Source: Candidatus Woesearchaeota archaeon
GTDB taxonomy: Archaea; Nanobdellota; Nanobdellia; Woesearchaeales; UBA11576
DNA length: 64,000 bases
NCBI GenBank assembly: GCA_043819495.1
Contig: JBDRET010000030.1
Coordinates: 5,463 to 69,462, forward strand
Reading direction: 5' to 3'
Positions 13,127 to 51,895 of this stretch are shown here, piece after piece. Each line of letters begins with the position of its first letter. The stretch's first letter is position 1. Position numbers and translations under genes: made by a program. The notes under the pieces were generated by a model, which saw nothing but the letters and a program-made list of their open reading frames with translations, was not told where the DNA came from and ran no database searches.

Positions 13127-13153
13127 AAAAAAATAAAAAAAAAGACAAAAAAA
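13127..13153 (-). terminator. oligo-T terminator/attenuator (T7-T9-T7 on the minus strand)
   Basis: The plus strand reads aaaaaaataaaaaaaaagacaaaaaaa, 18-45 nt downstream of the 13171 stop. It is flanked by the 8-bp stem AAAGACAA/TTGTCTTT. Confidence 0.5.
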
Positions 13154-13170
13154 GAGTGCAAAGCTTGTCT

Positions 13171-15196: not shown

Positions 15197-15249
15197 ATAT
15201 CATGTTCTTATCGTTGTGTCATTATTGGTATCATGTCTTTTTCTTATCA

Positions 15250-35000: not shown

Positions 35001-38000
35001 TCTATAATTAAAGCACCAGTTTACAATCAAGTTCCTGATTATGATAGTCTGCCTCCTGCAGGTTCATCTATAGGTGCCACATCGACAATAAAAGGATTCC
35101 ATCTCGAACACTTCTATATTGGAAATAATCATACAATGTCATTCATCGGGACTGATTCATATCAGACAGTATCGATCTTCATAGGGTCTGACACAGACTA
35201 TTATGCGTATGACTTCGATCAATGCACTATAATAGGTCCGAATACCACAACGTTCGGCAATCTATCATCTGGTGATTATGGAGTCATAGCTAAGAACACC
35301 ACTTATGATATAGGAAGATTCAATGTCACTATGACTTGCAATCCTGGAGCGATACCTCTTGCAGCTGACACATTCAATGTTCTGGTCTCGGCGAGGAAAT
35401 CGAGCGGCGCAGAAGATAAAGGTAATGAGGATTGGACAACACAGCTTCATGAGAATACAGAACCTGATGTAAGTTACATTGCTATAGAGCCTCTGAACGC
35501 AACGGGTTACGTGAATGTTGAACGAGGAAGACCTATAGGTTTCGTCGCTAACGCATCAGACCCTGGAGCAGGAGTTTATACTTCAGGAATATACAGATGT
35601 ATGTTCAATATAGGTGGTGCGGGCTACATATCTGACGATTGGGATAATAATTACCGGTGCAGGTATTCATATTCTACAACAAGTGACACGACCTCAAGCA
35701 TAACCGTCTCAGCATACGCGATAGATGGCTCTGATAATGATGACTCTTCAAGTCCATACACGTCACCATCTTTCAACATAAATGTCCAGCCGATACTTGA
35801 CAGAGAAATGGTCATAAACAAGACCAAGCCGTTCTTCAATTCAGGAGAGCAGGTAAGGATGAATGTCAGTTTCGTGACTGCTGACAATGGCAATTTCCCT
35901 GCGGCGACATGCTCAGTCACAGTACTCAACTCTGCAGGAGGAGTTGCAGCGGCAAGCACTATTGCAGCGACAAAACCTACTTCAAATACTGTAGAATGTG
36001 ATGGTGCAATCACTGTACCTACAGGAGATGATATGTACAGGGTATACGTGACAGTCACCGACGAAGATGGAGATTCTGTTTCATCAAATCAGAAAGTCTT
36101 ATACGTCTGCGACAGCTTATCAAGCTCTGGCTCTGGCTGGACCTGCGCAAAAGCAGACTTTGATCAGGATGGTGCTACAGAAGGCATATTCTCTGACCTT
36201 TACGTGATACCTGTCGCGTGTGATAACTGCCTCAATCTCTACAACCCTGAACAGGTCGACAGGGATGGTGATGGTTGGGGAGATATCTGCGAGCAGAGTC
36301 CTGAGGGAAGCATGATCATATATGGTCCTAATGGCACTACGTTTACAGGGACAAGGAATGTATTCATCAACCTGACATTCAGGGATACATTATATCTTGA
36401 CAATTGCAGATATGCTAATGATGATCCTGCTAACCTGAACGATTCTATGTGGGAGAACTGCACAATGGTCCATGCATGGATCCTGAGCGAAGGCGAAGGG
36501 AACAAGACAGTCTATGCTGAGATACGCAACCTGTTCGGCGGGACTATTGTGGTCAATGATTCCATAGTGTATCGTTTCATCCAGGACTATGTCCCTCCGA
36601 GCGCACCAGTGGTATATGATGGAGATACTGGCTATGATATCGACTGGTGGAATGATAACACCACCCTGAGTGCTTACTGGTGGAACGCGACAAGTGCGAT
36701 ATCTGCGCTTTATTACAAGTACAGGATATTTGAGGATGGTCTGTGCTATCTGGGAGATTGCGATTGGACTTATGTAGATAGAGATGTATCCGTAACTGTG
36801 GAAGGTCTCTCGCTCAGCGAAGGTGCAAACTATTCATTCGAGGTGATGTCTTACACAAGCTCAGGATTCAATGCATCCACGACATCCAATGGTACAATAA
36901 TAGATGTGACTGACCCATCAGAGGTCATCATCAACAGCACGACGCATCCAAATCAGAATTTCACTTATGGTAATGACACTGTATTCTTCAACTTCACTGC
37001 GACAGATCCTATGAGTAATGGTGTAGCATCAGGTATTGCAGGTTATTCATTCCTCTTGGACAGATATCCAGGGACTGCTCCTGATGATGTCATTGAACCA
37101 AGACCATGGGTGAATCTGAAAGCTGCAGTGAATGATGGCACAGCACAGCTATTGAGAGCAGATAATGAGACATCTTCCCCTAATACTTATGCAGTATTCA
37201 GTCAGATAAAGGAGAATTTTACAGAGAATGAATCGCTTCTGGTCAAGGTAGCTCTTGCAGAGATAGGGTCTGATTATGATGACCTGATGGGCATCAAGGT
37301 ATATCTCGTGAAGACAGGTAATGGTGCTGCCATAAGCACCTTTGACAGTGAGATTGGTGCAATAAGCAACATAATCAATGTGAGCAGGGACGTAACATAT
37401 TCAGATTTCATGCGCTCTGCAGTCAGATACGAATTTGAGCTTACAGTCAACGAGACGGTCTCTGACAGCTCGAGTGACGTATACATAGTGGTCGCAGGTG
37501 TCGCTTCTGACGATGACAACAGGAATAATCTCTCTATCGCAGCATCAGTATCACAGATAGATGATTCGACAAGGAATTTCATCTGTGTATCTGGAGGTTC
37601 CTGCAGTGAGAACACTACAGGTATCGATTACGCAATAGAGGTCAGCAGGCAGGATGCGGTGGATATCTGGGAGATGAGATATTTCAACATAGGTGAAGGG
37701 ACGTTCTATTTCCATGCTAAGGCAAAGGATGTCGCAGGAAATTGGGGTGACCCGGCACATTATAAGATAATCATAGATACCGAGGGAGTATATGTATCGA
37801 TAGTATCGCCATTCACAGGTCAGATATTCACTGTCGATGAGATAGAGGTCAAGGTTGAAGTGAGCGATCAGGCATATGTGAATGTGACTGCAATCTATCC
37901 TGACGGCAGCAATGATACTGTTGCTACTGTGTTAGTGAATGATACAAATACGTTCAATGTTACGCTGGAACCAGGCATGAATGAGATATACGCGACAGCA

Positions 38001-38498
38001 AGGCAGTATGGATCAGACATACTCACGCGATCATCAAGCGTCTTTGTCAGGAGAGGGACAGAGATGCCCGTAGGTAATGGCACATTGAGGATAAGATATG
38101 CAGGACTGGACTGTTCACAATATGCCCATATGTGTACTCTTGGTGAAGCAGGGCATATCATAGGCATAGCGTCAGAGAATGATACTCTTTTGATGGGAAG
38201 TGATGAGATGACTACAAGCACAGGGCATTACGCCCTCAAGATATTTGCTGCAGACCCTAGGATGGATTTTGGATCGATCGAGGATGATCTTGCTGATGAT
38301 GACTTCCTTGACAGGGAGAATCCTCTGTTCAGTTATAAGCAGGGCATACCATATTACATAGTGCGGACTGAGATGCGTCCTCCTTATGTCTATCTTAGCG
38401 GCGACCGTAAGGTCGGGGAGGGATATTACATTCTTGTATTCAGGAATGTAGGTTATACTGCTGATGGCAGGGCTAACATAAGCGTGAGTATAAGTTAA
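23037..38498 (+). CDS. giant (5153 aa) secreted/membrane-tethered protein: 7 NosD-type right-handed beta-helix modules, beta-propeller-like insert, internal TM hairpin, Cys/Asp-rich repeats, conserved ~730-aa C-terminal module
   Basis: Single uninterrupted ORF with the signal peptide IVLFCLAMLLFSSSVHAAG. PbH1-type repeats (N.I..N.....GI.L). Seven GN[YF]W.D..D.N.DG.GD.G..YPY caps. See the findings for sub-features. Confidence 0.9.
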   Translation: MVKLEKRLNIVLFCLAMLLFSSSVHAAGLIFGGATIPLIDGGYTIPEKAVPGETLQLFMHIADPGGVDSVVANFTHEKGGDIVALELYNGTSDDGYWKAEWVVHDTLVKDYSVEVIADNGVFQSFETVWWSDPIYPFRARYPSGYTCSSGTWRLGIKFSVTEAVQVESLCGYWSSGAHTVFLQQEGSYGSNLRSASVTSSGSWSCTAITPITLNPGINYFVAQNAAGGSYCYTNHPAGSKYGVNFAQGGVYQSGAGTYFTSAPTPDSAMAYGMVDIGLTCTTPSAGMTISAAGITRLCGGNYNLNDATGVIRIGNNNVNIMCGETILTGSGIVSGRAFYNPGYDGVTIEGCTTYEYLTAFYMGPTVTDAVFRDNTIYRPSNGFYSTNDNHARITIENNEIYTANYGFRVYVGGGDLVIQDNRFSATECNYIYYGDNHRVLNNNFTDLNGSCGVLYMIGYSGTNYNTGSVIENNRFSGAPGNVLFYLYYYLEDLVISNNTIDVSTSSTLYMSGNSYAYPNRNILVTYNNFIDAGYRGINFENYVNSSTISYNNISGPLYYDVRIGSTSGGNVIYGNRFLSAGTNLAEASNYNNHFNRTVGGVAQGNYWADVIPSKLNIQDANLDLFGDSGSQYPYRYSKGGDVNSYVIDYGPILVDSDGDGTPDNVDCGPNDPNIRAPRANLTITSNTIFCPGTYSLNDSSGGSGLIRFGASGITLTCNGTVIIGNGSGLGINDYGYDNVIIQGCDVRNYQYDLFFGNVVTGSTVFNNTLRDAVYGIYFGALGTTGNIVRNNTFTGNDYGVYFASGVIGNEVYHNEFLSSNTDHAYAVSSGNAFYEVIGFNQGNYWIDIPLSNLNITDSDSNGWGDGGSAYPYSAAKGGNVGPNVADYGPMMRDYDSDGSPDSVDCVDTDSSILAPADDVVISYDTTLCPGTYYVTDVGADGVLKVVNADVQILCNNTILIGDYSGIGIASSSLSASIVGCDIRNYSKAISQQQAYWNITFDNGISAIDISQEGALLLIDSYYGDDMKLNEFGETIWIHDSYFYTDIAADSAEDVFVLQEGGEGDAELRKLDGSTGDEIWTVGLYSSGTVVAHALDVNSVGDVFVVGMVGWDNWTIFKIDGSTGDEIWQSVTTLSNSELNAVAVTLDDDVFVGGFRVENDCWIAKYDGDTGDELWNTSDIGCGGGYDQVTDVAVDTSNDLIAVIVDYSSYGSYSNWQIWKGDSDGNEQWVDQIPFDNSIGDNYIWAVATDSADNVIVAGDNNGNWTVIKLNPAGTPLWNRTGEGYGSDVAVDADDNIFVVGEDYDYYGFVLGFTPDGDLLGGGSIDITSSSISSDIGMELIGVSSGTIFNMTFNGNSVYGLYFNDTDDFTVMNSTFANYDYGVYLDSASTGNTFYHNNFTNSAIAHAYAEAAGNYFNFTIGGVPVGNFWDDVAPSMLEIYDTNIDGFGDLGPDYPYSAANGGQVSSNVADYGPMLTDSDSDTVPDYLDCAPYDSSIFPPYDGLKLTSPGTYTLCNGTYYLSDAGNDGIIRVVSDAVTIKGNNTFIVGTNSGYAIRSYEKYAGLTIQGCTLSNFSYGIYLYNTSAGAYSVFWDGLTIKDNNISNMTSAGIYVSYGMKDALVYNNIVEETGTFGIRLVNMANYFSDNNNVTDNDVRTGSDSGIYTDWAGVLIKDNDVTGGGYGIQCRHCIRSNISYNRVINSAQKGILMYYGNTSDLDVTQSVISYNNVSHGAHGGIGIRNIRNLTVAYNWILHTDGTGQHDAGIWDYSESTDRNRYITIRNNYIFNCSNHAILHTNFGHGYITVANNTIDGGWSGSAPRTANGIMFQASGLNYSTFEWNNITNMNGVGIYLNYDASGNIFRYNYIYVNRSSATSVYVYSDIDIKNNTFYNNTFKGGSGGVQFGTNSNNNLVYWNNFLNNTWHASSPALTNQFNTTVGGVPQGNFWDDINSSSLKIFDSNLDGFGDSGAEYPYNSTNRGDVQNKVNDWGPIMIDSDVDGDPDWRDCAPFDSSILSPYDDLNITQDTTLCSGTYYVNDTSGDGLIVFANDDLSLTCNGTVMVGYGNTAIKIADHDGITVSDCTMDYYGSSLGKAALYVLNSNDAVIENVSFSHSRGYSMAFNHVSNYDNNISVDGMTVINGTTAALAVFEVSNSSFKNMYLNVDRGSGSDAIYDDVTYNVSFENITIDGNIATGLFIFSESNLSTYDDIDVDMSQASPSNAGTYIEGKNTTIRNSVFRNTAGGWGIYFSGGGSYGLIENVNLLNNEWGMQIDSGDYHTIRNSTFFNNTQGVLIDSGEIGNIFYYNNFSNSTTYHARADGSGNHFNTTNGSACGNECARGNYWDDILSLDIIDFNRDGYGEAGAHYPYNSTNGGKVTGSVNDFGPLTTKTCYDTDGDGAYNSSSAAGCPGYRDCDDTDEYLVPPYDGLNFTSSGSYTLCSGTYYLNDTGNDGLMKIDSDDVEITCNGTVIRNDIGATEIGTAFNNAGGDDAIVRGCTVVDYDFGYYAEASSNHSTIFNNSFLSCQNAGVESIYSGNDGWNVSDNRFMSEDESPVNQYGVVVNYGDGWAIQRNVFDNMYNSISFRYGDDVLIENNLLNESRLGAIVITGTTGDFVYGAIIANNTFNKSILSGGTAELYIGSYSEAGLIADNTFYVLGGFSTAVIRLDGTSGGEVTDWVIENNDLLDIRNYGIYLQDYTIGTIVRGNNITGADMYGVYLGATVIDDNLFYNNSFYNSGTDHAYDASGANHFNTTIGGVAVGNFWDDINNNIEIFDNNLDGYGDSGPEYPYNSTNGGNVYKVNDYGPILIDSDIDGDPDWRDCNDADAGVLAPRDGLNITSDKMLCSGTYYINDSGVQGVIIFGSAGRELTCDATVMIGNGSGYAVADSYSTTSVDGCDFRNYGSAVLISGSASGVVIANNTLRDSARGVELSGSPTGNIIQNNTITADSYGVYLGSGVSGNYVYYNTFSSMSLANAYAASSGNHFNTTNGSDCGPQCARGNFWDDVLNLQISDLDEDGYGDAGTEYPYNATNGANVSGFVTDWGPATTKAGGYWDSIIYPEGVFEPYNAGLVSKNHQFTLNFTFVDLSAAAGNTLECAINMMNGSVKTINKITSGGVNFDDSLTYTLTAADANAIQKKTVGANKPIIPWEVINCSLKSSGNVLYWNDSSYGSPLEKKIYVHNNTWTGFVAGGDVSAAYLCWLFSKNIWFNNTKACDFDGDYQYAIYLSTGNAIEGNCHDGINNDNFGPTDCDTGICRGIFYSCGNPSKGKSYDDLHPNIPAVLPYLNPFNPEVPPFMPFIWLAAAIMFALLAVFVSRFAELSDLRYVSTVVPIILFICFIINAVTILTVSVAVSAPSIEAAYNGAPPGSCVGNICSGTVSTIGGNPITYYYTLHNRPGSKFKIRWNDDNVNDPLLRSLIYTAKNLSNTISSNGTYDDSGGRPGISRGSVMPPFFDTPEHPNGLFRNYIVQDSDGHAGVVDGVMWAIFNSSVDTTDSVYFQLAVSHYGAADDINPQTELYFDLSAPTNDDESYVNSTIGLANPCADRVDNDLDFNMDCLDDQCNGEIGNVGLGAICQYSGETVCNDRFDNDFDRDSGVLYDTDVNTGMDCRDSGCDGLQGHPSDGSLVCRYLDEHAGYPYSCRDGFNNDADYGNNSGTASLVNGVAAYDTASYTYFDCYDTQCWGQGGTSTDLINNPCPAFENNDGAWCLDGLDNDLDDGNNTRDLSNSTGVDCRDYDCGFMPYAGGPYQNDTMNFTCAINEYSGTEEGTASYDPNASLCFDNLDNDLDNPDGFYNNPGELIDCGDPDCTGITDPDDASRTCYVQEFNITLGIQACNDAFDNDGDDWMGWPGGTDCRDSNCHQQFGNCGPCASVENITYDSCADGMDNDIDTPTGADVADCKDYSDCVGEIGNLTGGQVCSAASGETGALCGDGFDNDADNLVDCKDTNCYGSIGPDGQVCAASEAGRCNDNLDNDADGQIDCFDTDCYGDSACALSIIKAPVYNQVPDYDSLPPAGSSIGATSTIKGFHLEHFYIGNNHTMSFIGTDSYQTVSIFIGSDTDYYAYDFDQCTIIGPNTTTFGNLSSGDYGVIAKNTTYDIGRFNVTMTCNPGAIPLAADTFNVLVSARKSSGAEDKGNEDWTTQLHENTEPDVSYIAIEPLNATGYVNVERGRPIGFVANASDPGAGVYTSGIYRCMFNIGGAGYISDDWDNNYRCRYSYSTTSDTTSSITVSAYAIDGSDNDDSSSPYTSPSFNINVQPILDREMVINKTKPFFNSGEQVRMNVSFVTADNGNFPAATCSVTVLNSAGGVAAASTIAATKPTSNTVECDGAITVPTGDDMYRVYVTVTDEDGDSVSSNQKVLYVCDSLSSSGSGWTCAKADFDQDGATEGIFSDLYVIPVACDNCLNLYNPEQVDRDGDGWGDICEQSPEGSMIIYGPNGTTFTGTRNVFINLTFRDTLYLDNCRYANDDPANLNDSMWENCTMVHAWILSEGEGNKTVYAEIRNLFGGTIVVNDSIVYRFIQDYVPPSAPVVYDGDTGYDIDWWNDNTTLSAYWWNATSAISALYYKYRIFEDGLCYLGDCDWTYVDRDVSVTVEGLSLSEGANYSFEVMSYTSSGFNASTTSNGTIIDVTDPSEVIINSTTHPNQNFTYGNDTVFFNFTATDPMSNGVASGIAGYSFLLDRYPGTAPDDVIEPRPWVNLKAAVNDGTAQLLRADNETSSPNTYAVFSQIKENFTENESLLVKVALAEIGSDYDDLMGIKVYLVKTGNGAAISTFDSEIGAISNIINVSRDVTYSDFMRSAVRYEFELTVNETVSDSSSDVYIVVAGVASDDDNRNNLSIAASVSQIDDSTRNFICVSGGSCSENTTGIDYAIEVSRQDAVDIWEMRYFNIGEGTFYFHAKAKDVAGNWGDPAHYKIIIDTEGVYVSIVSPFTGQIFTVDEIEVKVEVSDQAYVNVTAIYPDGSNDTVATVLVNDTNTFNVTLEPGMNEIYATARQYGSDILTRSSSVFVRRGTEMPVGNGTLRIRYAGLDCSQYAHMCTLGEAGHIIGIASENDTLLMGSDEMTTSTGHYALKIFAADPRMDFGSIEDDLADDDFLDRENPLFSYKQGIPYYIVRTEMRPPYVYLSGDRKVGEGYYILVFRNVGYTADGRANISVSIS
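32910..33080 (+). other. two predicted TM helices in the middle of the 5153-aa ORF
   Basis: FIWLAAAIMFALLAVFVSRF (nt 32910-32969) and YVSTVVPIILFICFIINAVTILTVSVAVSA (nt 32991-33080), separated by a 7-aa charged loop. Confidence 0.6.
33642..34994 (+). repeat. nine Cys/Asp-rich repeats C-x-D-x-[FL]-D-N-D-x-D...D-C-x-D-x-x-C (protein-level)
   Basis: Examples are CNDNLDNDADGQIDCFDTDCYG, CGDGFDNDADNLVDCKDTNCYG and CADRVDNDLDFNMDCLDDQCNG. They resemble MopE-type putative metal/Ca-binding motifs. Confidence 0.7.
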
Positions 38499-38534
38499 AG
38501 AAGGTGTTATGAAGTGGAAAAAGAAACGAGCGGC

Positions 38535-40826
38535 ATGATTTTGATGAAGGTGAGCGAAGTATTCGTGCTCTTATCTGTGATTATCCTGCTTGCAGGAGCA
38601 GTATCTGCAGATATCCCTTCAGGGTCTATTGAGATAAGAGGTCTCAATGGCACTGTGCTTACAGGGTCGCGTAATGTGTTCCTTAACATATCATATAGCT
38701 CATCTGATGGTATTGATATATGTCGCTTCGCAAATGATGACTATTTAGATCTTGCATCTATGTCATGGGAGGAATGTACTACTGTAAAGGCTTGGCTATT
38801 GAGTGGAGATGAAGGCAACAAGACGGTCTACTTCGAGGTACGCGACATCAATGGGCACGCAGCGATATTCAATGATTCCATAATGTTCAGGTTCATCCAG
38901 GATTTCACACCTCCTACTGCTCCGATAGTCTATGATGGAAGTTCAGGGGAAGATATCGATTGGTGGAACAGCAATACTTCGCTCGGAGCGTTCTGGTTTG
39001 GATCGACAGAAGACATATCGACGATATTCTATAGGTACAGGATACTTGAAGGCGCAGCTTGTTATGCTGGGGACTGTAATTTTACGAGCACAGGGACAAG
39101 CACATCAGTGGATGTTGATTTGCTCTCGCTGATAGAAGGAGGAAATTATTCTTTTGAGGTCATCGCGTATAATCATGATGGGCTGAATTCATCGTCAGGT
39201 CTTTCTGATGATGTTACGATTGATATGACGAGGCCAGGCCTGCCAGAGGTGGATAGTTCTACACATCCTGATCAGATCACTCCTTACGATAGTGCGATAG
39301 CTATATTCAATTGGACTTCATCGGATCCATTGGGCAATGGTGTTGCATCCGGAGTGTATTCATATTCGTACCTTCTTGACAAGCACCTTGGTACTGCTCC
39401 TGATAATGTCGCAGAAGGGAGATATTGGGATACTCTTGCATACATGCGTCGTGGCAGCTATAACCAGACTCTCAAGGTGAATGGTACCGGGATGGCGTAT
39501 GCAGTATTCAGCCAGGTCAATTCTAATTTCAGCGTGAATGATTCTTTACATGTGAGTGTAGCATTGGCAGAGCAGATATCTGACTATTCGGATCTCATGG
39601 GCGTCAAGGTCTATCTGACCAAGGTCGCTCAGGATTTGGATATAGGTTCATTTGATATGGAATCAGGAGCAGTTACAGAGGTATATAATGAGAGCTGGGA
39701 TGTCAGATACGCAGACTCTTTGACATCTGCAAAAGCGTATCAGTTCAGTCTCACATTGAATGATACTGTCGATGATAATACTGAAGATGTCTATGTGGTC
39801 GTATCAGGCATACTATCTGATGATGATAATCGTAATCCATTGGCGATAGCAGGGACGGCTACAGGAGAGCTTATCGACAATTCGACAAAGAACTTCATCT
39901 GTCCTGAGACTGGTATCTGCATACAGAACACCAGCACTCTTGATTATGCTATTGAGGTCAAGCGCCAGGATTCTGGTTCCGATTGGTCTGTCAGGTATGA
40001 TTATCTTGGCGATGACACTTATTATTTCCATGTCAAGGCACAGGATCTTGCAGGGAATTGGGGCGACACAGCGCATTATAGGATACTTGTTGCTGCAGGA
40101 GGCGTAGGGTCTCTTATCTATTCTCCTGTGAATGGAGAGGTCATAACTGGTGAAGGTCCTGACGTGAACACTACGGTGAGAGTGGTGGTGAGCGGCAACA
40201 CGACTGCTTATGTTGTGGTCATACACCCGCTGGGTGATAATTACACATCTCCTTCACATGTCATGAACCTGAGCCATGATTTTGAGGATGTCCAGCTTAA
40301 GCTAGGTCTCAATGAGATATATGCCGTGACGAACACCACATCAGGTGCTGTCGCACATTCGTCCAGCGTATTTGTGATAGCATCTTCTGAGCCTGAGGCG
40401 GCCACGAACAAGACTCTCCGGGTACGCTACAACGGATGTGCTGCGACCCCTCTGCCTTATGTCTGCTACCTGACTGAAGGGGATGCATATGTTGGTATCG
40501 CGACAGAGACAGAAGGTGCGCTCAGCGGGTCGGATGTCCAGCAGGACACATCTGTCCGGACGATCAAGATATTCATGTCACGGCAGTTTGACCTTGCGGA
40601 TGTATCTGCACGGCTTGCTACAGATGATTTCCTTGACAGGGTGAACCCTGCTTTCGGTTACAAATATGGTGCAGATGTCTACAGCATAAGCAATGAGCTG
40701 AGGTACAAAGATATTTTCCTTGGAGGAAATTTTATTGTCTCGCCAGGGACTTACCAGCTATACATCATGAAGAGCGGGACCACAAGTTCAGGCATGTCTA
40801 ACATAACGATTGCGATATCGGATTGA
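38535..40826 (+). CDS. secreted paralogue of the giant protein's C-terminal module (copy 2)
   Basis: Signal peptide MKVSEVFVLLSVIILLAGAVSA. It is colinear with nt 36297-38495 (RNVF[IL]N, C[RK][FY]ANDD, GEGNKTVY, FIQD[FY].PP.AP[IV]VYDG, YYFHVKA.D.AGNWGD.AHY). The track starts at the GTG at 38514; the ATG at 38535 or 38544 is more plausible. Confidence 0.85.
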   Translation: MILMKVSEVFVLLSVIILLAGAVSADIPSGSIEIRGLNGTVLTGSRNVFLNISYSSSDGIDICRFANDDYLDLASMSWEECTTVKAWLLSGDEGNKTVYFEVRDINGHAAIFNDSIMFRFIQDFTPPTAPIVYDGSSGEDIDWWNSNTSLGAFWFGSTEDISTIFYRYRILEGAACYAGDCNFTSTGTSTSVDVDLLSLIEGGNYSFEVIAYNHDGLNSSSGLSDDVTIDMTRPGLPEVDSSTHPDQITPYDSAIAIFNWTSSDPLGNGVASGVYSYSYLLDKHLGTAPDNVAEGRYWDTLAYMRRGSYNQTLKVNGTGMAYAVFSQVNSNFSVNDSLHVSVALAEQISDYSDLMGVKVYLTKVAQDLDIGSFDMESGAVTEVYNESWDVRYADSLTSAKAYQFSLTLNDTVDDNTEDVYVVVSGILSDDDNRNPLAIAGTATGELIDNSTKNFICPETGICIQNTSTLDYAIEVKRQDSGSDWSVRYDYLGDDTYYFHVKAQDLAGNWGDTAHYRILVAAGGVGSLIYSPVNGEVITGEGPDVNTTVRVVVSGNTTAYVVVIHPLGDNYTSPSHVMNLSHDFEDVQLKLGLNEIYAVTNTTSGAVAHSSSVFVIASSEPEAATNKTLRVRYNGCAATPLPYVCYLTEGDAYVGIATETEGALSGSDVQQDTSVRTIKIFMSRQFDLADVSARLATDDFLDRVNPAFGYKYGADVYSISNELRYKDIFLGGNFIVSPGTYQLYIMKSGTTSSGMSNITIAISD

Positions 40827-40868
40827 GTATGAAATATGGATTGACTATTATAATATAAGATAAAAACG

Positions 40869-41561
40869 GTGAATATGATGGAAACAAAAAATATGGAACG
40901 AAAAGAGGAGAGCCAGAGTATGCCTGGCCTGCGAAAGTTCATTTCGCCCAAAGCGGCGCACAGATTCGCTAATCTGACGTCATTCCTGGCACGTTTCATC
41001 ATAATATTCATGTTCCTCATAGCGACAGCTCTCGCCCAGGTGCAGTCCCACAGGTTGTCAGAGATAAGGATAATAGATCAGGATCTTAATCTGAATGTCT
41101 ATAGCCTGAACGCAACAATGATCAACGCAACTGATGATATATGCATCACTGGAGGTGTCTGTCTGAGCAATGCATTTGGGACGTTCTATGATAAGACTAC
41201 CTCGCCAATAACTGCAAATTTCGGACTTTACGCTCCAAGTGGAGAGACTGGTTACGATGCAGGGACTGCGATATGTAATAGTAATTTTACTGGGACCCAT
41301 ATGTGTAGCTTCACTGAGATCGTTTATACCATATCTACAAGAAATTTTGCAGCGATATCTGGCTGGAATGGAGAGGCATGGATAGCCTCAGGTCCTGCGA
41401 AGTATTCGCCCGCAGCATTACCTGTGGCGGACTGTAATGGATTCACTCATGGTACTGCAGGAAGTCACCTGGGTAACTGGTGGACATTCAGCACAACGAC
41501 AGGAGGAGTAGGCAGGACAGGCCACTGTGGGAATACGTTTCCCATAGCCTGCTGTAAGTGA
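40869..41561 (+). CDS. membrane-anchored protein carrying the Cys-rich C-terminal domain of the 653-aa fibre-like protein
   Basis: 230 aa with the TM FLARFIIIFMFLIATALA. Its last ~150 aa align with the end of the 41571..43532 product (DDICITGGVCL/NDICIDGGNCL; C.[AS].FTG.H.C...EIVYTI; GNWW.F..TTGGVG.TG.C......IACC). Confidence 0.8.
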   Translation: MNMMETKNMERKEESQSMPGLRKFISPKAAHRFANLTSFLARFIIIFMFLIATALAQVQSHRLSEIRIIDQDLNLNVYSLNATMINATDDICITGGVCLSNAFGTFYDKTTSPITANFGLYAPSGETGYDAGTAICNSNFTGTHMCSFTEIVYTISTRNFAAISGWNGEAWIASGPAKYSPAALPVADCNGFTHGTAGSHLGNWWTFSTTTGGVGRTGHCGNTFPIACCK

Positions 41562-41570
41562 GGTGCGAAA

Positions 41571-43532: not shown

Positions 43533-43542
43533 GGTGGCGAAG

Positions 43543-46500
43543 ATGAAGATGAATAAGACAATAATAATTATGACTTTTATTGCAGTACTGCTCAGTGTTT
43601 TCGTCGCTGCTGATGTAAGCTGGACAAATCATCCGTCCAATTGTGAGGCCAGTTATGCTGCATTATCCTGTGCAGTCATAGGTGAAGAGGTCTGTGGTTA
43701 TAATAGTGGAACTGGCGCTATCCTCTGTAATGATACTGATGTGATGCCGAATCCTCCAGGCAATGTCTACAATTCGATAGCTGATAATTATGGTACTACA
43801 GGAGGATTTGTAATCAACTGTGCTGCATCTCCTGATGGTGGTACGTATAATTGTGATAATGGTGGCGCTTACTGGTGCGAGAAGGATGATACCTGTTGGA
43901 ACTCAAATAACCGTAAGACTAATTGTTTTGCAGGGAAGTGGCAAGATGATGCCGGTGCGTACGCCTGTGGTGTATGCAGAGATAATTATTACAACTGTAC
44001 GGGCGGTGCTTCTTGTACTAACTATACTGGTCAGAGTTGTACTGCACCAGGTGGTCTTCCGGGAACTTTAAGCTGTTCTGCTGGTGGCGGAAGCCCTAAT
44101 TGTAATAATGGTGGCGGTAGTCCGTATACTTGTACTTGTATAGGTTCCCCTTCGCACCATATCACAGGAACAGAATCATTATTCAGTACTGTTAATGCTA
44201 ACCTATGGTCTACTCAGGTAGGTACTGGCTGGATAGCCAATTTCACGAGCACAAACTCTGACAACACATTAGGTATAGACAATGATGCCTGTGTCAGGTT
44301 CGATGATGGTACGACCCAGTGCACTGCAGCATCAGGTGGCGGCTGGAACACAAGTGATGGTAAGGTATATCTGAGCAACACAAGCGCTAAGGTAGGGATA
44401 GGCACGACGAGTCCTGGTGCTGATCTGGATGTTACAGGGACTGTGTCATCTATTTTGGTGAACTCGACTGGTTCGGGTGCTTCAGATTTTGGTACGATAA
44501 GTTTCAGCCATAATGGTGGAAACTTGTGGAGTGTTGGCACGGGAGGTACGGGTACTTCTGCTAATGGTCATTTATTTTTCTATAATAGCCAAGGAGGTGG
44601 AAGCATACCTATGGTTATTAAGAATGGTACAGGCAACATCGGCATCGGTACGTCAAGTCCAAACACGAAGCTCTATGTGTATGATGACATTGACAGTAAT
44701 CTCATACTGACTATAGATAATCCAAATTCTGGAAGTAGTGCCGTATCGACCTTAGCTTTGGTCCAGAATGGTGCAAACGCTCGCATATGGAATATAAATG
44801 GAGGGATTGGTTTTTCAGCAGATGCAGATGACACTGGCAGTTTCATGTTCGAGACCCAGACAGGGAGCAGTTATCATAATCGACTGACCATTGAAAATGG
44901 CGGCAATGTCGGCATCGGTTCTTCAAATCCTGGTTCCATATTGGATGTTGAAGATTATGATGCTGGTTATGGTAATAACATCACACAGTTGACTGTAGGT
45001 GTGCCTGATGGTGTCGGAAGTAATTGGACTTCTCAGATCATGATGGAAGCGACATTCGAGAACTTCACAGTAGATACTGGCAGCAGGAATACTGGATTGA
45101 TCCAGGCAGGGTATGATGGTGGTCCATGGGATACTGCATATCTTAGCCTTGGTGTATCTGGAAATGATTGTCTTACTGATGGAGGTACTACACCTTGCGA
45201 ACGGATGCGCATAGTATCAGGTGGCAACATTGGCATCGGCACGTCAATTCCCGACCAGGACCTTACGATAGAGGATCCGGGTGATGATGTTGCAATTCAT
45301 TTGAAGAAGGTTATACAGATATCGAGTGTGAATTATGGAATTACTGGAGCTAATGATGCTTCAGTAGGTACGCGCAGTTGGGATGGTGTTTCAGGGTCAG
45401 GTGCAGGCTCTATATTTTTTGCAGAACCGGTCCAGACGACTTATTACTTCAAGTCAACTAACTATGGGTTCTCTATACCTTCTGATGCAGTCATAGATGG
45501 CATAGAATTCAGATTATCGAGATTAGGACAGCCTTATTGGGCAGGTGATAGTTATTGTTATGGTGCAGATAATAGTATTAAGATAGTCAAGGGAGGGATA
45601 ATAGGATCTACAGAGAAGAGTACGGGAACTGTATGGAGTTCTCTTGGTGGGGGTAGTGCGACAACCACATATGGTGGCCCTTCTGATCTTCTGGGTGAGA
45701 CCTGGACTCCAGCAGACATAAATTCTGCTAACTTCGGTTTAGTTTACTCAGCGAACATGGGTGGTTCGAATGAAGTATGTGAGTTTTCAGTGACTGTTGA
45801 TTCGATGACAGTCTATTACACAGGTACTGGATGGACTGCAGGTATGGATCATAGTGACTCTAATTCCTTCAAGATATCTTTGTCTGGAGATGTAAGCGAA
45901 AATCCTGCTTTGGTGATAGACACGTCCAAAGATGTGTTCCTGAATCATGATCTTGATGTTGGTAACAATCTTGATGTGGAAAATAATGTGCATATATCTG
46001 GTGACTTGGATGTTGCAGGAGGAGATATAACTACAGCAATACTGCGTTTTGGTACTGGAACCAGTAGTGGCCAGTATGAGTTTGAGGATGGTGGGGTGTG
46101 TGTTGGTAGTGGCGGTTGTACTGCTCCGACTACTGATGGTGATCTTCTTGTAGAAGGAGATGTGACTATAAGTGGTGGTGACTTGTTTGCAACCAGTTTA
46201 AGGTTCGGCAGTGCATCTAGCAGCGGCCTGTATGAGTTTGAGGATGGTGGTGTGTGCATAGGTGATGGAGGATGTACTGCTCCGACCACTGATGGTAACC
46301 TTCTTGTTGCAGGAGATGTGCTGACAACTGATATACTTAAGACAGGAGGTACTAATTTTTTCACAGGAGGGTGCACTGATAAGCAGTATATCACAGGAAT
46401 AAGTTCTGCAGGAGCCATAAGCTGTTCAGATGACAGTGCATCGTCTTCAGTCAATTGCGGAACCACTAATGCAGTAATAAAGCGGACAGGCACTGATACG

Positions 46501-47595
46501 TATGGTTGTTCAGGAGTGATTGACGCATCGGATGCAACAGCAATCACTATAAGTTCTGCTGAATATGTTGGGATAGGTACTACAACACCTGGCGAACCCC
46601 TTGATATAGAATACACTTGCTCAAGCTGTAATGTTGGTGTGGCATCATTAGGTAACTCTGGGACATATGCTGATGGGGATTATTCTCTGGCGGTAGGCTA
46701 TGATTCATATACGTCTATAGCAGGAGATTATGGATTCGCATTAGGATATGGTTCACGTTCTACTTATTGGGGTGCAATAGCGATGGGTGAATACGCAATC
46801 TCGCAAGGCTCTGTTTCCGTAGCCATAGGTGAAAGAGTATTTGCAGGAGGGATGCAGGCAGTTGCAATAGGTAATTATGCTAAAGCATCAGGTCGTGCTT
46901 CGACAGCATTAGGCAACCACGCTAAAGCTGACGTTGATTACAGCGGTGCATGGGGAGGGGACGCATGCGACGCTACTGCAACAAACTGTGACGTTGATTA
47001 CTCGGGTGTCTTCGGAATTTTCGGTGCTCTGTGCGTCTCTACTGCGGCAGGGATTTGCCCTGATGTACCAGATGGAAATATCCGGTATGATACAGGCATA
47101 GCAGCATTCGATCTTGCAGAAGGTTTCCCGACTGATAAGCAGTTGGATAAGGGAGATGTTGTTGTCATTGTAGATAATGTGACTATAGGTCATACAAATA
47201 TTCCTTATGACACAAGAGCTGCAGGAGTGATAAGCACATCACCCAATATAGCATTCAATTTCGACGAAGCAGATGGTGACTTCAGTTCCTTGGGCGGCAT
47301 TGAGAATTACACGATGCCACTAGACCGAGCACCTCTATCCCTTGCAGGCAGAGTCCCTGTCAAAGTTACTGACGAGAACGGTCCGATAATGTTAGGTGAC
47401 TCTTTGACGACATCATCAAAGCCAGGATATGCTATGAAGTGGTCACTTGTTGATCTTGACGCTGCATCAGACATAAATGAACTTAAGCAGATGATGAAGG
47501 AGAATGACCGCAGGAGGAATGCAATCATCGGCAAGGCTCTTGAAGAGCACAGTTCAGGAGATGGGCTGATAATGATGCTTACAGCATCACGTTAA
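43543..47595 (+). CDS. large secreted fibre-like protein (about 1350 aa), paralogous N-domain, multiple VGIGT..P motifs, YadA-head-like repeats, distinct C-terminal domain
   Basis: Same MKMNKT start and the same upstream TGAGGTG SD as the previous gene, so the ATG at 43543 is preferred over the track's GTG at 43534. N[IV]GIG[TS]S.P...L.V occurs five times. Repeats LAVGYDSYTS, FALGYGSRST, AIAMGEYAISQGSVSVAIGERVFA, AVAIGNYAKASG and STALGNHAKA span nt ~46678-46932. Confidence 0.85.
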   Translation: MKMNKTIIIMTFIAVLLSVFVAADVSWTNHPSNCEASYAALSCAVIGEEVCGYNSGTGAILCNDTDVMPNPPGNVYNSIADNYGTTGGFVINCAASPDGGTYNCDNGGAYWCEKDDTCWNSNNRKTNCFAGKWQDDAGAYACGVCRDNYYNCTGGASCTNYTGQSCTAPGGLPGTLSCSAGGGSPNCNNGGGSPYTCTCIGSPSHHITGTESLFSTVNANLWSTQVGTGWIANFTSTNSDNTLGIDNDACVRFDDGTTQCTAASGGGWNTSDGKVYLSNTSAKVGIGTTSPGADLDVTGTVSSILVNSTGSGASDFGTISFSHNGGNLWSVGTGGTGTSANGHLFFYNSQGGGSIPMVIKNGTGNIGIGTSSPNTKLYVYDDIDSNLILTIDNPNSGSSAVSTLALVQNGANARIWNINGGIGFSADADDTGSFMFETQTGSSYHNRLTIENGGNVGIGSSNPGSILDVEDYDAGYGNNITQLTVGVPDGVGSNWTSQIMMEATFENFTVDTGSRNTGLIQAGYDGGPWDTAYLSLGVSGNDCLTDGGTTPCERMRIVSGGNIGIGTSIPDQDLTIEDPGDDVAIHLKKVIQISSVNYGITGANDASVGTRSWDGVSGSGAGSIFFAEPVQTTYYFKSTNYGFSIPSDAVIDGIEFRLSRLGQPYWAGDSYCYGADNSIKIVKGGIIGSTEKSTGTVWSSLGGGSATTTYGGPSDLLGETWTPADINSANFGLVYSANMGGSNEVCEFSVTVDSMTVYYTGTGWTAGMDHSDSNSFKISLSGDVSENPALVIDTSKDVFLNHDLDVGNNLDVENNVHISGDLDVAGGDITTAILRFGTGTSSGQYEFEDGGVCVGSGGCTAPTTDGDLLVEGDVTISGGDLFATSLRFGSASSSGLYEFEDGGVCIGDGGCTAPTTDGNLLVAGDVLTTDILKTGGTNFFTGGCTDKQYITGISSAGAISCSDDSASSSVNCGTTNAVIKRTGTDTYGCSGVIDASDATAITISSAEYVGIGTTTPGEPLDIEYTCSSCNVGVASLGNSGTYADGDYSLAVGYDSYTSIAGDYGFALGYGSRSTYWGAIAMGEYAISQGSVSVAIGERVFAGGMQAVAIGNYAKASGRASTALGNHAKADVDYSGAWGGDACDATATNCDVDYSGVFGIFGALCVSTAAGICPDVPDGNIRYDTGIAAFDLAEGFPTDKQLDKGDVVVIVDNVTIGHTNIPYDTRAAGVISTSPNIAFNFDEADGDFSSLGGIENYTMPLDRAPLSLAGRVPVKVTDENGPIMLGDSLTTSSKPGYAMKWSLVDLDAASDINELKQMMKENDRRRNAIIGKALEEHSSGDGLIMMLTASR

Positions 47596-47656
47596 GTAGG
47601 ACTGACAAATTAGGATAAAAAAGAGGTGAACATTCATAACACATAGACGGAGCATC

Positions 47657-50350
47657 TTGATATCTGTACTTGTGTTCATCCTAGCGTCAGCAGCTCTCGC
47701 AAGCCCGCAGACAACAAGCAACTTCAACTGCTCTATCTATGAGCGCATAGGAATACCTGCAGATTTCACCCCTCTTGTCAACTTCTTTTATGGGAATGAT
47801 TCCCACGCAGAATATGGAAATGAATCTAATTATGATTGGACTGTTGCATGCAAGTCTAACATCACAGAGATAGGTTACGGTTGTACTGAAACAGCAGTGA
47901 GTGTCCTCCAACTCTACAACTACACTGATGCGCACGTATCTGTGGATGATTACTATAACAGGAATGTCTGTTTCAATATGACTAACGACTCGGTCGTCTG
48001 GCATTATAATATCTCAGATACAGGCATGACTCCCGCTGGTTACGAATGCGCATTCTCAATATTCCAGATGGAAGATGCCCACGTGTATGATTGTGATAAC
48101 ATAAACTCAAGCTATAATGTCAACCTGCGTATAACTGAAAAGCCGCTGGGTACCATGACTATTGTCGGGCCTAACGGTACGATACTCACAGCTACGCAGA
48201 ATGTATTCCTGAATCTGACTCAGGATGCGAAATATGGCCTGGACAAGTGCCGTTGGGCGAATGATGACGCGGCGGACCTGGTTCTGGCGCCATGGGAGAA
48301 CTGCACAAATTACAAGCCATGGATACTCAGTGATGGAGAAGGTAACAAGACAGTGTATTATCAGATCATCGACGTGCTCGGAGTTCTATCAAATCCTATA
48401 AACGCATCGATAGACTTCTCTTATACCCAGGACTACACCGCTCCGACATCACCGATAGTATATGATGGTCTTGAAGGTGATGACATCGACTGGTGGAACA
48501 GTAACACCACCCTGCACGCACATTGGTTCAATGCGACAGATGATATCTCTGTGATATACTACAGATACCGCGTGCTTGAGAACGGTTCGTGCTACGGCGA
48601 TTGCAATTGGACAGAAGCAGGACTCAACACTTCAGTGACAGTCACAGGACTTTCTCTTAACGAGAGCTGGTGGTACTCTTTTGAGGTCCAGCCATCCAAT
48701 GCTTTCGGTATAGATGGAGCCCCTTCACAATCTAATGGGACTATGATAGATATTACAGCACCAGCAATACCTTCAGTAAACAGCACAAGCCATCCTCAAG
48801 AGAATCTATCTTACCCTGTACGGGATGCAGAGCTCAACTGGACAGCAGAAGACATCATGATGAATGGCAACATGAGCGGTATTGCAGGATACTCGTTCAT
48901 GCTTGACACAAGTCCAGGTACTGCACCAGATGATATATTGGATGAGAGGTATCTTGAAACCATACTATCAGGAAGTCAAGGCACATCCAGCCAATTGTTG
49001 CGGGCAGACAATGAGACCTCATCACCTCATACTTATGCAGTTTTCAAACAGATACATACCAACCTTACAGAGAATGATTCTCTGACGATCACAGCATATC
49101 TTGCTGAACTCACATCAGATTATGATGATCCTATGGGTGTCAAGGTATATCTGATAAAGACCGCTCCAGGAGCAGGTATCTTGACATTCTCACAGGAAGA
49201 TAAAGCGATATCTGACATATCAAACACAAGCCAGGATATCATATACGCAGATACTATGGATCTTGCAAGAGCATACACTTTCAGTGTGACAGTCAATGAG
49301 ACTGTCGATATCAATTCCAATGATATATATGTCGTCGTGAGCGGTGACACCTCTGATGATGATAACAGGAACAACCTCTCGATTGCAGGTACTGCTGCTT
49401 CTGCAGGTGCTACTTCAGTATACTTGTGTGATGACACCAACTCATGTTCTAATGTCACAAGCACTGCAGATTATACAATTAAAGTAGAGCGCTCAGATGC
49501 AGGTGACGGATGGTCTACCATGTACAAAGGCCTCTCTGATGGTGTGTACTATTTCCATGTCAAGGCAAAGGACATCGCAGGCAACTGGGGAGAGCCGACG
49601 CATTACAGGATTGCTGTCGCTGCAGGTGGTGTTAGCGTATCGATAGTGCATCCTGAGAATGGAGAACATCTCAAGATGGGACAAGGATCGTTGAACACGA
49701 GTGTGGAAGTCGTGGTCTCAGGGAATGCTACAGTCCGTGTGACTGTCATCCATCCGGATAATAGTGTCTACACGACTGACGATCAGGTCTTCAGCACAAG
49801 ATATGAATTCAGTGATGTTCTCCTAGAGCTGGGCAGGAATGAGATCTACGCTACAGCGAACACATCGTCAGGTGTAGTGACTGTCTCTTCAAGCGTCTAC
49901 GTCACGGTATCGCGCGGAATCATACCTGAGAAGAACGCGACATTGATGATCGCTTATGGTGCATGTGCCCCTTCATCCAACCCATACCTGTGCACTGCAG
50001 CAGAAGGTGATTCATTGGTCGGCTTTGCAGCAGAATACCCTGATGATGTAGGTACAGGATACCTTTCAGCAAACACCTCAGGAAGGACAATCAAGATATT
50101 CATGTCCAAGGTGTTCAATGTTGATGCTGTTGCTGATAAGTTTGATGATGATGAGTTCCTTGATGAGGAGAACCCCTCTTTCGGTTATCCTGAGGAATCA
50201 ACAAGGTTTGTCATGCAGAACCAGTTGAGGTATGATGACATATTCATATCTGGTGATAAGATATTTGCTCCAGGCAAGTATGAGCTTTACATAATACATA
50301 ATGGTGTGACTCCTGATGGGAGGGTTAACCTTTCAATAGAGATACGATGA
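47657..50350 (+). CDS. secreted paralogue of the giant protein's C-terminal module (copy 3) with extra ~160-aa N-domain
   Basis: Colinear with copies 1 and 2 from nt ~48150. The start codon is uncertain: the track uses the TTG at 47657, but the reading frame is open from 47630 and a GAGGTG SD sits at 47623-47628. Confidence 0.8.
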   Translation: MISVLVFILASAALASPQTTSNFNCSIYERIGIPADFTPLVNFFYGNDSHAEYGNESNYDWTVACKSNITEIGYGCTETAVSVLQLYNYTDAHVSVDDYYNRNVCFNMTNDSVVWHYNISDTGMTPAGYECAFSIFQMEDAHVYDCDNINSSYNVNLRITEKPLGTMTIVGPNGTILTATQNVFLNLTQDAKYGLDKCRWANDDAADLVLAPWENCTNYKPWILSDGEGNKTVYYQIIDVLGVLSNPINASIDFSYTQDYTAPTSPIVYDGLEGDDIDWWNSNTTLHAHWFNATDDISVIYYRYRVLENGSCYGDCNWTEAGLNTSVTVTGLSLNESWWYSFEVQPSNAFGIDGAPSQSNGTMIDITAPAIPSVNSTSHPQENLSYPVRDAELNWTAEDIMMNGNMSGIAGYSFMLDTSPGTAPDDILDERYLETILSGSQGTSSQLLRADNETSSPHTYAVFKQIHTNLTENDSLTITAYLAELTSDYDDPMGVKVYLIKTAPGAGILTFSQEDKAISDISNTSQDIIYADTMDLARAYTFSVTVNETVDINSNDIYVVVSGDTSDDDNRNNLSIAGTAASAGATSVYLCDDTNSCSNVTSTADYTIKVERSDAGDGWSTMYKGLSDGVYYFHVKAKDIAGNWGEPTHYRIAVAAGGVSVSIVHPENGEHLKMGQGSLNTSVEVVVSGNATVRVTVIHPDNSVYTTDDQVFSTRYEFSDVLLELGRNEIYATANTSSGVVTVSSSVYVTVSRGIIPEKNATLMIAYGACAPSSNPYLCTAAEGDSLVGFAAEYPDDVGTGYLSANTSGRTIKIFMSKVFNVDAVADKFDDDEFLDEENPSFGYPEESTRFVMQNQLRYDDIFISGDKIFAPGKYELYIIHNGVTPDGRVNLSIEIR

Positions 50351-50360
50351 GGTCAAGTGC

Positions 50361-50918
50361 ATGATAAGAACAAAGGGCATCTTCAATATGCTGCTCAATA
50401 ACCGGAAGGCGCAGTTCTATATATTTACAGCAGTCCTGCTTATAGCATACTCGACCCTTCTGCTGCAGTCTTTTGATGTGACCCCTCAGCCATCCAAGAA
50501 TTTCAAGAGGGTATATGATAATTTCATATTTGAGAGTGGTGCTGCAGTCAATAATGCCTTGTTTGAACAGGTAGATGTGGTTGATGAGTATGACCGTTTC
50601 CTTGACAGTTTTGTCTCCTACTCAAAGATGAAGAAGCTGAATATAGAGATATTTTCCATATTGGAGCTTGATGACAGGGTGTATCTGTCAAATAAGATGA
50701 GAAACGCAGTGACCATCCTTAATATTGGTCAGACAATCGGTCCTGGGACTGATGCCTATTTCCTGCGCTCAAACCTCTCAGAACTGGTCTTAGAGGTCAG
50801 AGATGACGTTTTTCATGAGAACATTTATAAATTAGATATCTCTAATGAAGGGACTGACACAAAAGCGGTGCTTAGGGTCAGTCAAGGCACTAAACGCGAG
50901 ATATTTGTGAAAGAATAG
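50361..50918 (+). CDS. pilin-like protein (class III-type signal)
   Basis: ...MLLNNRKA|QFYIFTAVLLIAYSTLLL. The real start may be the ATG at 50388. Confidence 0.6.
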   Translation: MIRTKGIFNMLLNNRKAQFYIFTAVLLIAYSTLLLQSFDVTPQPSKNFKRVYDNFIFESGAAVNNALFEQVDVVDEYDRFLDSFVSYSKMKKLNIEIFSILELDDRVYLSNKMRNAVTILNIGQTIGPGTDAYFLRSNLSELVLEVRDDVFHENIYKLDISNEGTDTKAVLRVSQGTKREIFVKE

Positions 50919-50997: not shown

Positions 50998-51492
50998 GTG
51001 AACAAGATATCCGAAAAGAGTTTTACAAGATTGCTGGTGCGTGATCGAAGAGCAGTATCTGCCTGGATATCTTGGGTACTTCTGGTTTCATTTGCACTAG
51101 TCCTAAGTGCATTCATGTACAATTTTATGGTCTCTTATACAGAGGACTCGACAGAGGATATGAAACAAGTCGTGTATAACACGGATGAGTGTCGTATGGT
51201 GTCTATAAACCTTGATTCGGCCTGTATGGCATCACAAGTTTTAAATATCACGCTGCAAAATAGGAACTATATAAGGATAACAGGAATGGACTTCAGGTTT
51301 TATAACGGCCGGATTCCATTACATACGAATCAGACCAATATAACCATGAATCCTAACAGGATAAAATATATTGAGTTGGATACTGGTCTGACTACAGTGA
51401 CAAGGGTAGAGATCATACCTCATGTCTATAAGGACAATGTAGATGTGATATGTGGTGACAAGAAGATAGAATCAGAGGTGAGCATCTGCTGA
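50998..51492 (+). CDS. pilin-like protein (class III-type signal)
   Basis: ...LLVRDRRA|VSAWISWVLLVSFALVLSAF. GTG/TTG start with uncertain position. Confidence 0.6.
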   Translation: MNKISEKSFTRLLVRDRRAVSAWISWVLLVSFALVLSAFMYNFMVSYTEDSTEDMKQVVYNTDECRMVSINLDSACMASQVLNITLQNRNYIRITGMDFRFYNGRIPLHTNQTNITMNPNRIKYIELDTGLTTVTRVEIIPHVYKDNVDVICGDKKIESEVSIC

Positions 51493-51888: not shown

Positions 51889-51895
51889 GGTGGCA

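Follow-up and report, generated by a model that had tools for sequence, protein, structure and literature searches.

A thrice-encoded secreted module beside the pilin cluster of a woesearchaeote, a candidate stalk of pilus-associated adhesins

Here we describe a protein module of about 735 amino acids (aa) that is encoded three times in a 64,000-nucleotide stretch of contig JBDRET010000030.1 from a Candidatus Woesearchaeota archaeon (the window), its third copy ending immediately before the genes of a type-IV-pilus-like system. The three copies are ancient paralogs, and the same placement of module and pilin genes recurs in about 20 distinct archaeal loci. From this synteny and from the predicted fold we propose, giving the proposal an even chance, that the module is the stalk and docking part of secreted adhesins that work with the type-IV-pilus-like system of Woesearchaeota.

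Three module copies and the adjoining pilin genes

A first-pass annotation, made from the sequence of the window, had claimed a module of ~730 aa present thrice, once fused to a giant protein and twice in separate secreted proteins. Using each copy as a tblastn query, we located the module in exactly three places, 36297-38495 (copy 1), 38616-40823 (copy 2) and 48143-50347 (copy 3), and both an alignment and a module hidden Markov model (HMM) bore the claim out. Pairwise identity among the copies is 45.5-47.6% across 733-741 aligned residues (E = 0). No fourth copy was found in the window, for example in a 2003-aa protein on the minus strand, as tblastn gave nothing further below 1e-3 and the module HMM no additional match. 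The three-way MAFFT alignment is colinear from 'P.GS..I.G.NGT' through the final 'N[IL][ST]..I', has a mean column identity of 63% and contains every motif that the first-pass annotation had listed.

Copy 1 is the C-terminal 733 aa of a 5153-aa giant encoded by the open reading frame (ORF) 23037-38498, where module-HMM positions 1-734 match residues 4425-5155; outside the module, Pfam identifies the giant as NosD/Beta_helix (right-handed beta-helix) repeats. Copy 2 lies in a 770-aa ORF (38514-40826), in which it follows a signal peptide that extends to ~38609 and is joined to no passenger domain; the start codon is probably the ATG at 38535. Copy 3 belongs to an 897-aa ORF (47657-50350). Copies 2 and 3 had both been described as free secreted proteins, and each does have its own signal peptide, but copy 3 is not bare: a Cys-rich N-terminal extension of 146 aa (47702-48142) precedes the module. 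This extension gave no Pfam match at E<=10. It contains nine sequons (N-x-S/T) and three internal '[LF][YF]xxx[DN][SA]H[AVI]' repeats ~45 aa apart, and its sequence suggests a small binding domain with three-fold pseudo-symmetry, perhaps trefoil-like. In the giant, a linker at 36180-36296 ('CDNCLNLYNPEQVDRDGDGWGDICEQ') that lies exactly at the fusion boundary of copy 1 resembles, by eye, a thrombospondin type-3 calcium-binding repeat; the giant gave no Pfam match to TSP_3 at E<=1.

Only 10 nt separate the stop codon of copy 3 from a set of five pilin-like genes with class-III-like N-termini (50361-50918, 50998-51492, 51890-52471, 52523-52942 and 53043-53750; plus strand, as are the module, fibre, ATPase, TadC, prepilin peptidase and regulator genes of the window), among which 51890-52471 passes TIGR02537 (27.1 bits against a cut-off of 20). 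A 95-aa membrane protein with two predicted helices is encoded within this block (51601-51888), and the block is followed by a pilus assembly ATPase (53831-55972; T2SSE, 2.7e-30) and two TadC/T2SSF-like membrane proteins (56368-58725 and 58738-59661; T2SSF, 2.4e-16 and 5.9e-15). With the window proteins as queries, the same series was recovered in all archaeal loci that include the downstream flank (~20 distinct). In each, a gap of ~100 nt at most separates the module gene, or the last of several, from two pilin-like genes, the 95-aa membrane protein, three further pilin-like genes, the T2SSE ATPase and two TadC genes, in the same order, and module identity among these loci falls as low as 26%. 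That a module gene stands directly upstream of the same pilin series in ~20 loci supports a link between module and pilus.

Two proteins of the cluster have features of their own. The 95-aa membrane protein, which belongs to no assigned family, is matched in all related loci with E-values of 1e-19 to 1e-51, so that its gene ranks among the best conserved there. The TadC/T2SSF-like protein encoded at 56368-58725 is unusually long (785 aa), T2SSF covering only residues 612-737 and the N-terminal ~600 aa being unannotated.

The module proteins themselves carry the marks of secretion. Signal peptides, which were judged by eye, read 'MILMKVSEVFVLLSVIILLAGAVSA|DIPSG' in copy 2, where cleavage falls two residues ahead of the module, 'MISVLVFILASAALA|SPQ' in copy 3 and 'MVKLEKRLNIVLFCLAMLLFSSSVHA|AG' in the giant, and the orthologs have canonical K/R-rich n-regions and AxA-type cleavage sites. 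Class III prepilin signals were considered for the module proteins and rejected, since the N-termini are of Sec type I with AxA-like cleavage and lead straight into the beta-rich module. Each module contains 24-29 sequons, compared with 8-9 +/- 2.5 in composition-preserving shuffles, a threefold excess that the cytoplasmic and membrane control proteins of the window do not show; 12 sequon columns and seven Cys columns are common to all three copies. None of the C-termini ('...SGMSNITIAISD', '...GRANISVSIS' and '...GRVNLSIEIR') is hydrophobic, and neither a C-terminal transmembrane helix nor a PGF-CTERM sorting signal was found in the three proteins by reading of the sequence or as an NCBIfam match. 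The module proteins are thus predicted to be extracellular, N-glycosylated glycoproteins.

Domain anatomy and distribution of the module

AlphaFold2, run on mature copy 2 with 48 family sequences, predicts an all-beta, multi-domain protein with a mean pLDDT (predicted local distance difference test) of 84.4. In module residues, the model divides into an immunoglobulin (Ig)-like domain, D1 (1-92); a fibronectin type III (FN3)-like domain, D2 (93-205); an Ig-like domain, D3, in two parts (206-268 and 463-497); a further Ig-like domain, D4 (498-592); and a C-terminal domain (~593-736, encoded at 40392-40823) with a pLDDT of 39-86. D3 is split by a predicted jelly-roll insert (residues ~269-462, encoded at 39420-40001), which bears the 'DDDNRN' motif. 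Sequence comparison backs this split. The tandem repeats of ~100 aa in a Desantisbacteria protein (L026) match HMM positions 201-272 and then directly 463-495, and two proteins of distant Woesearchaeota (L024 and L025) match positions 1-271 followed directly by 455-494.

A Foldseek search with the whole module gave only FN3/Ig chains (titin, LAR, cytokine receptors, the MG domains of C3, and SbsB), at a template-modelling (TM) score of at most 0.22. Because these matches were generic, the insert was modelled separately (residues 268-464), yielding a predicted 11-strand sandwich with a pLDDT of 93.2 and a pTM of 0.88. Against the PDB it matched generic jelly rolls, all at E >= 1e-3, including a PBCV-1 capsid minor protein (TMq 0.51), the lectin-like domain of Cwp84 (0.46), carbohydrate-binding modules (CBMs) of families 4, 16 and 27, MAM domains, the ephrin-receptor ligand-binding domain and TNF-like folds. 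Against BFVD the matches, with E from 6e-5, were unnamed viral proteins (TMq 0.58 and 0.55), PBCV-1 DUF5901 and phage collagen-repeat/tail-fibre proteins. The insert thus shares the beta-sandwich fold of these domains (TMq 0.46-0.58), whereas identities of 8-15% and E-values from 6e-5 to 1e-2 place the relationship at the level of fold only. Over all the fold matches weighed for a CBM or lectin assignment, TMq is 0.3-0.58 and E >= 6e-5.

The lack of a nameable family, which the first-pass annotation had also reported, was confirmed across Pfam, NCBIfam, PHROGs and the PDB. Pfam gave only sub-threshold Big_13 and Y_Y_Y matches on the module, at 17.4 bits (cut-off 27) and 17 bits (cut-off 26.6), on the 'YYFHVKAxDxAGNWG' strand pair. 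NCBIfam and PHROGs searched with the whole module proteins gave nothing above threshold, the C-terminal domain had no Pfam match at E<=10 (last 143 aa), and the family profile run against all PDB sequences returned noise (E = 0.4-0.9). With regard to an FN3 domain at residues ~93-205, the family profile matched titin FN3 weakly (E = 0.86) and Pfam gave no fn3 match; NCBI annotates one ortholog (P0022) as a 'fibronectin type III domain-containing protein'.

Parts of the module are nonetheless widespread. A profile search of 1.84 billion representative proteins gave 12,627 matches at E <= 1e-3, mostly to tandem arrays (10-40 stretches) of D1, D2 and the halves of D3. Common Ig/FN3-type building blocks, present in thousands of proteins, thus make up the first ~270 residues and the 'YYFHVKAxDxAGNWG' segment; they are of the same repeat types as in the FN3/Ig-like adhesins of bacteria and archaea (Big_13, Y_Y_Y). 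Among the best 150 of the 12,627 hits, 41 reach the end of the profile, each no more than 12 residues from the C-terminus of its protein; these proteins are 330-6626 aa long, the shortest being contig-truncated fragments. The C-terminal domain was found only as part of the module and always at the protein C-terminus. What is specific to the module is its complete domain arrangement, the insert and the C-terminal domain: unlike other FN3/Ig-like adhesins, which share only repeat types that here fall below Pfam gathering thresholds, it combines a five-unit order, a 190-aa insertion and a C-terminal domain that were found only in Woesearchaeota and Nanoarchaeota. The first-pass annotation had allowed that the likeness might come down to a well-characterised family or to Ig motifs; the similarity instead spans the full ~730 aa, and it is the first ~270 residues and the 'YYFHVKAxDxAGNWG' segment that are generic.

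In a scan of one genome per GTDB species, complete modules were confined to records bearing the title Woesearchaeota or Nanoarchaeota and to some, automatically titled 'uncultured Methanosarcinales', that have the same locus; bacterial matches had just an Ig segment of ~30-100 aa in common. The scan relied on one peptide pattern only, and the phyletic range it gives is therefore a minimum. A word-indexed profile search with the C-terminal 240 aa returned one fragment and missed known members, and is therefore uninformative on the distribution of the C-terminal domain. The Methanosarcinales titles come from the TPA_asm metagenome-assembled genome records CAYOQS01, CAZLYC01, CAZNGE01, CAZXTQ01, CAYUOQ01 and CAZBFZ01 (L002/L006, L003/L005, L007, L012, L018 and L021). 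Their loci are of the Woesearchaeota type, with modules 36-58% identical to copy 2 in the best segments, and the organism label 'uncultured Methanosarcinales archaeon' is probably wrong.

A paralog trio with variable heads and neighbouring fibre genes

A homolog search identified 55 proteins in three size classes, often with several on one contig. Besides the window, five loci are complete (L001, L002, L003, L004 and L007), each with exactly three full modules. In a neighbour-joining tree of 25 modules (200 bootstraps), the modules fall into three clades, A (containing copy 3; bootstrap 86.5%), B (copy 2; 100%) and C (copy 1; 99.5%). All six complete loci, the window included, have one member of each clade, and in all six the gene order is C, B, one or more fibre-type genes, A. 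Wherever a clade could be assigned, the module next to the pilins is of clade A. The copies are thus ancient paralogs, A, B and C; three old lineages co-retained across genomes are not the product of a recent local triplication. In distant Woesearchaeota (L016-L025) the full module occurs once, as the C-terminal part of a large protein. Given this single module the triplication is lineage-specific, and the ancestral state was probably a module fused to a large protein.

The passengers N-terminal to the module vary even within a single clade, from none through extensions of 170-200 aa to beta-helices of 340 to more than 4400 aa. Clade A usually carries a Cys-rich extension of ~170 aa, with a beta-helix in L001 and L007. 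Clade C is a giant in the window and in L003 and carries the small extension in L001 and L007, and clade B usually carries nothing, with a beta-helix fusion in L002. The domain that forms the copy 3 extension also heads beta-helix-fused proteins in L001, L002 and L007.

Divergence between the paralogs is concentrated in the last ~240 aa. The ratio of within- to between-clade identity is 1.27-1.42 in D4 and the C-terminal domain, compared with 1.08-1.14 from D1 through the insert. Strong gene conversion was examined as the source of the N-terminal conservation and rejected, as paralogs of the same locus are 50.4% identical and those of different loci 47.7%, uniformly along the module. Three bootstrapped clades, one of each in 6/6 loci, and divergence focused on one end of the module support a non-redundant trio.

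Three fibre-like genes (40869-41561, 41571-43532 and 43534-47595) separate copies 2 and 3, as had been noted at first pass. They are mutually related, two of the three contain YadA_head repeats (1e-10 and 3e-7), and the 1353-aa protein matches a PHROG tail-fibre family (6.6e-8). A homologous fibre-like gene lies between B and A in L001, L002, L003, L004 and L007. The L002 homolog carries Peptidase_S74, an intramolecular-chaperone domain typical of trimeric phage fibres. Fibre-type genes shift in position and number between loci, as seen in L001, where two ORFs flanking the C and B genes (4535-7282, 915 aa; 12354-14663, 769 aa) match the 230-aa and 1353-aa fibres and not the module HMM. Within the window, the 230-aa fibre protein (40869-41561) is nearly a stand-alone copy of the ~180-aa Cys-rich C-terminal head of the 653-aa fibre (43137-43532; 45% identity, E = 1e-35), and both proteins end '...IACC[KM]*'. 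The motif 'C..[SN]FTG.H.C...E' of this head recalls, by eye, endostatin/C-type-lectin-like heads.

Elsewhere in the window, an archaeal prepilin peptidase is encoded at 4270-5130 (Peptidase_A24, 1e-12, and Arc_PepC_II); it would process the pilins and not the module proteins. At the head of the locus lies a gene for an ATPase_2 and winged-helix regulator (21939-23027; weak Pfam matches), whose orthologs hold the same position in L001, L004 and L016. Between a HIT-domain gene and this regulator, a minus-strand block (9475-21261) encodes the 2003-aa protein (weak Big_7/Y_Y_Y), ORFs of 308, 184 and 183 aa, and a 1194-aa protein with CBM96/disaggregatase repeats. As HIT genes adjoin the regulator directly in L001, the block seems to have been inserted or to have been added in this lineage only.

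The module as a candidate adhesin stalk

These data allow us to propose a model in which each module protein is exported by Sec and its signal peptide removed. The chain of Ig-like, FN3, split Ig-like with jelly-roll, and Ig-like domains would then form a rigid, glycosylated stalk, bearing at its N-terminus an interchangeable head that would be a beta-helix array in copy 1, a Cys-rich domain in copy 3 and absent in copy 2. The C-terminal end, which has no membrane anchor and is the most diverged, may dock non-covalently to the pilus apparatus, with the pilin-like proteins encoded just downstream, or else its fellow paralogs, as the likeliest partners. The host- or substrate-binding end of the system would consist of the fixed trio A, B and C and the trimeric fibres. 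The stalk architecture is supported by the confident all-beta model and the FN3/Ig-chain matches in Foldseek, and a docking or base role by the constant C-terminal position of the module under varying passengers. The neighbouring YadA-head and tail-fibre-like proteins, together with a jelly-roll insert akin to CBMs, lectin-like domains and the head domains of phage fibres, support a context of adhesion. There is also precedent, in that large, secreted, predicted adhesins are reported from archaeal type IV pilus (T4P) loci (PMC4858521), and cluster-2 DPANN, Woesearchaeota among them, are reported to conserve T4P loci whose genes include attachment-protein-like ones (PMC11291902).

Several observations weigh against this model. 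What ties the module to the pilus is synteny. As Sec substrates and not prepilins, the module proteins cannot be filament subunits, and they contain no known docking domain such as the PilY1 beta-propeller. For the jelly roll, matches are weak, with a best E of 6e-5 and TM <= 0.58, and point to a fold rather than a ligand; the C-terminal domain is the part modelled with least confidence (pLDDT 39-55 in the last ~50 aa). Conservation is higher in the N-terminal than in the C-terminal domains, which would be unusual for a merely passive stalk, and taxon sampling was limited to what the single peptide pattern retrieved.

An alternative is that the module proteins form an S-layer or cell-envelope lattice, the adjacency to the pilus genes reflecting mere co-regulation of surface structures; we consider this unlikely. 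The Sec signals, the heavy sequon enrichment and the acidic, all-beta Ig-like chains are what such a lattice would be expected to show, archaeal S-layer and surface glycoproteins being likewise secreted and sequon-rich. In addition, SbsB appears among the Foldseek matches (rank 45), and S-layer-like proteins are noted in archaeal T4P loci (PMC4858521). The SbsB match is generic, however (TM 0.11), and the module proteins have neither the C-terminal transmembrane or PGF-CTERM-type anchor of archaeal surface glycoproteins nor an NCBIfam match. A 5153-aa beta-helix fusion and passengers ranging from 0 to >5800 aa fit a regular lattice subunit poorly, and the strict position next to the first pilin-like gene, kept even between deeply diverged loci, points to a closer functional connection.

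We also find it improbable that the module is a CBM-type, substrate-binding appendage of catalytic beta-helix (pectate-lyase/NosD-like) parts, with the free copies acting as soluble or competing glycan binders. Such a role would suit the NosD/Beta_helix repeats of the giant and many relatives, the resemblance of the insert to CBM4/16/27 and the Cwp84 lectin-like domain, and the presence nearby of the CBM96/disaggregatase-like protein (9475-13059). Clade B proteins, however, usually have no catalytic partner and those of clade A usually only a small Cys-rich domain, the fold matches are weak (E >= 1e-3 in the PDB), and the constant C-terminal position, the fixed trio and the invariant pilin adjacency are left unexplained. 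This explanation overlaps with the adhesin model, since an adhesin can bind glycans. Finally, a chance or generic likeness of Ig-repeat proteins, in which the module would be no meaningful unit, could draw on the 12,627 proteins dominated by D1, FN3 and split-Ig arrays and on the sub-threshold Big_13/Y_Y_Y matches, but it is refuted by 46-48% identity over 733-741 aligned residues in identical domain order, by a unit whose first residue is the same in every context and whose end coincides with the stop codon, by an insert and a C-terminal domain that are not generic, and by orthologous trios in other genomes.

Returning to the stalk-and-docking model, its closest counterparts are PilY1/PilC of Pseudomonas and Neisseria, which, like the module proteins, are large, Sec-exported non-pilins encoded in or next to a minor-pilin cluster (here at a distance of 10 nt, and adjacent in ~20 loci). 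In PilY1/PilC the adhesive N-terminal part varies, whereas the C-terminal part, thought to dock on minor pilins, is conserved (established knowledge and PMC4858521), a layout that the module proteins would share. The two are nevertheless unrelated in sequence and fold, the module being an archaeal Ig/FN3/jelly-roll chain with three fixed paralogs combined with trimeric fibre genes. Neither the PF05567 beta-propeller nor DUF2341 was matched by Pfam in the module proteins (E<=1 for whole proteins, E<=10 for the last 143 aa). With no beta-propeller in profiles or model, membership of the PilY1 family fails, and the module may be a functional analogue of PilY1, not a homolog.

The adhesins of archaeal and DPANN T4P loci, as described in Makarova et al. 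2016 (PMC4858521) and Hamm et al. 2024 (PMC11291902), resemble the module proteins in being large, secreted and encoded in T4P loci. Fibre-like and viral-attachment-like proteins are likewise reported from the T4P loci of cluster-2 DPANN, including Woesearchaeota (PMC11291902). These accounts concern DUF2341 proteins and coiled-coil, sigma-1-like proteins, unlike the module, and term searches in the two papers and searches of a limited collection of literature found neither the ~735-aa module nor its split-Ig/jelly-roll anatomy nor the A/B/C trio. Multi-Ig surface adhesins and non-pilin adhesins encoded with pilins are already known in kind. What appears to be new, being undescribed in the libraries and literature searched, is the family with its split-Ig/jelly-roll anatomy, its universal position before the Woesearchaeota pilin cluster and the constant C-B-fibre-A trio whose heads can be swapped.

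A more specific, speculative and rather unlikely extension is a heterotrimeric base, seated on the minor-pilin tip complex of a DPANN type IV pilus, in which the diverged C-terminal domains join A, B and C one-to-one and which presents the giant beta-helix head, the small Cys-rich head and the trimeric fibres together. If true, this would make the pilus tip a multi-headed host-recognition complex of a new kind, by which Woesearchaeota attach to their hosts.

Woesearchaeota are widespread, uncultured archaea with small genomes that are thought to depend on other cells, and we know of no account of how they recognise and hold their partners. The locus provides a concrete, conserved candidate for an attachment apparatus, composed of a type-IV-pilus machine, a trio of secreted stalks with swappable heads encoded just ahead of its pilins, and phage-like fibres. 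The exchange of heads on a constant module suggests a route by which host or substrate specificity may evolve. As a protein family so far unannotated, the module would improve the annotation of many giant DPANN proteins and could serve as a genomic marker for the adhesion locus.

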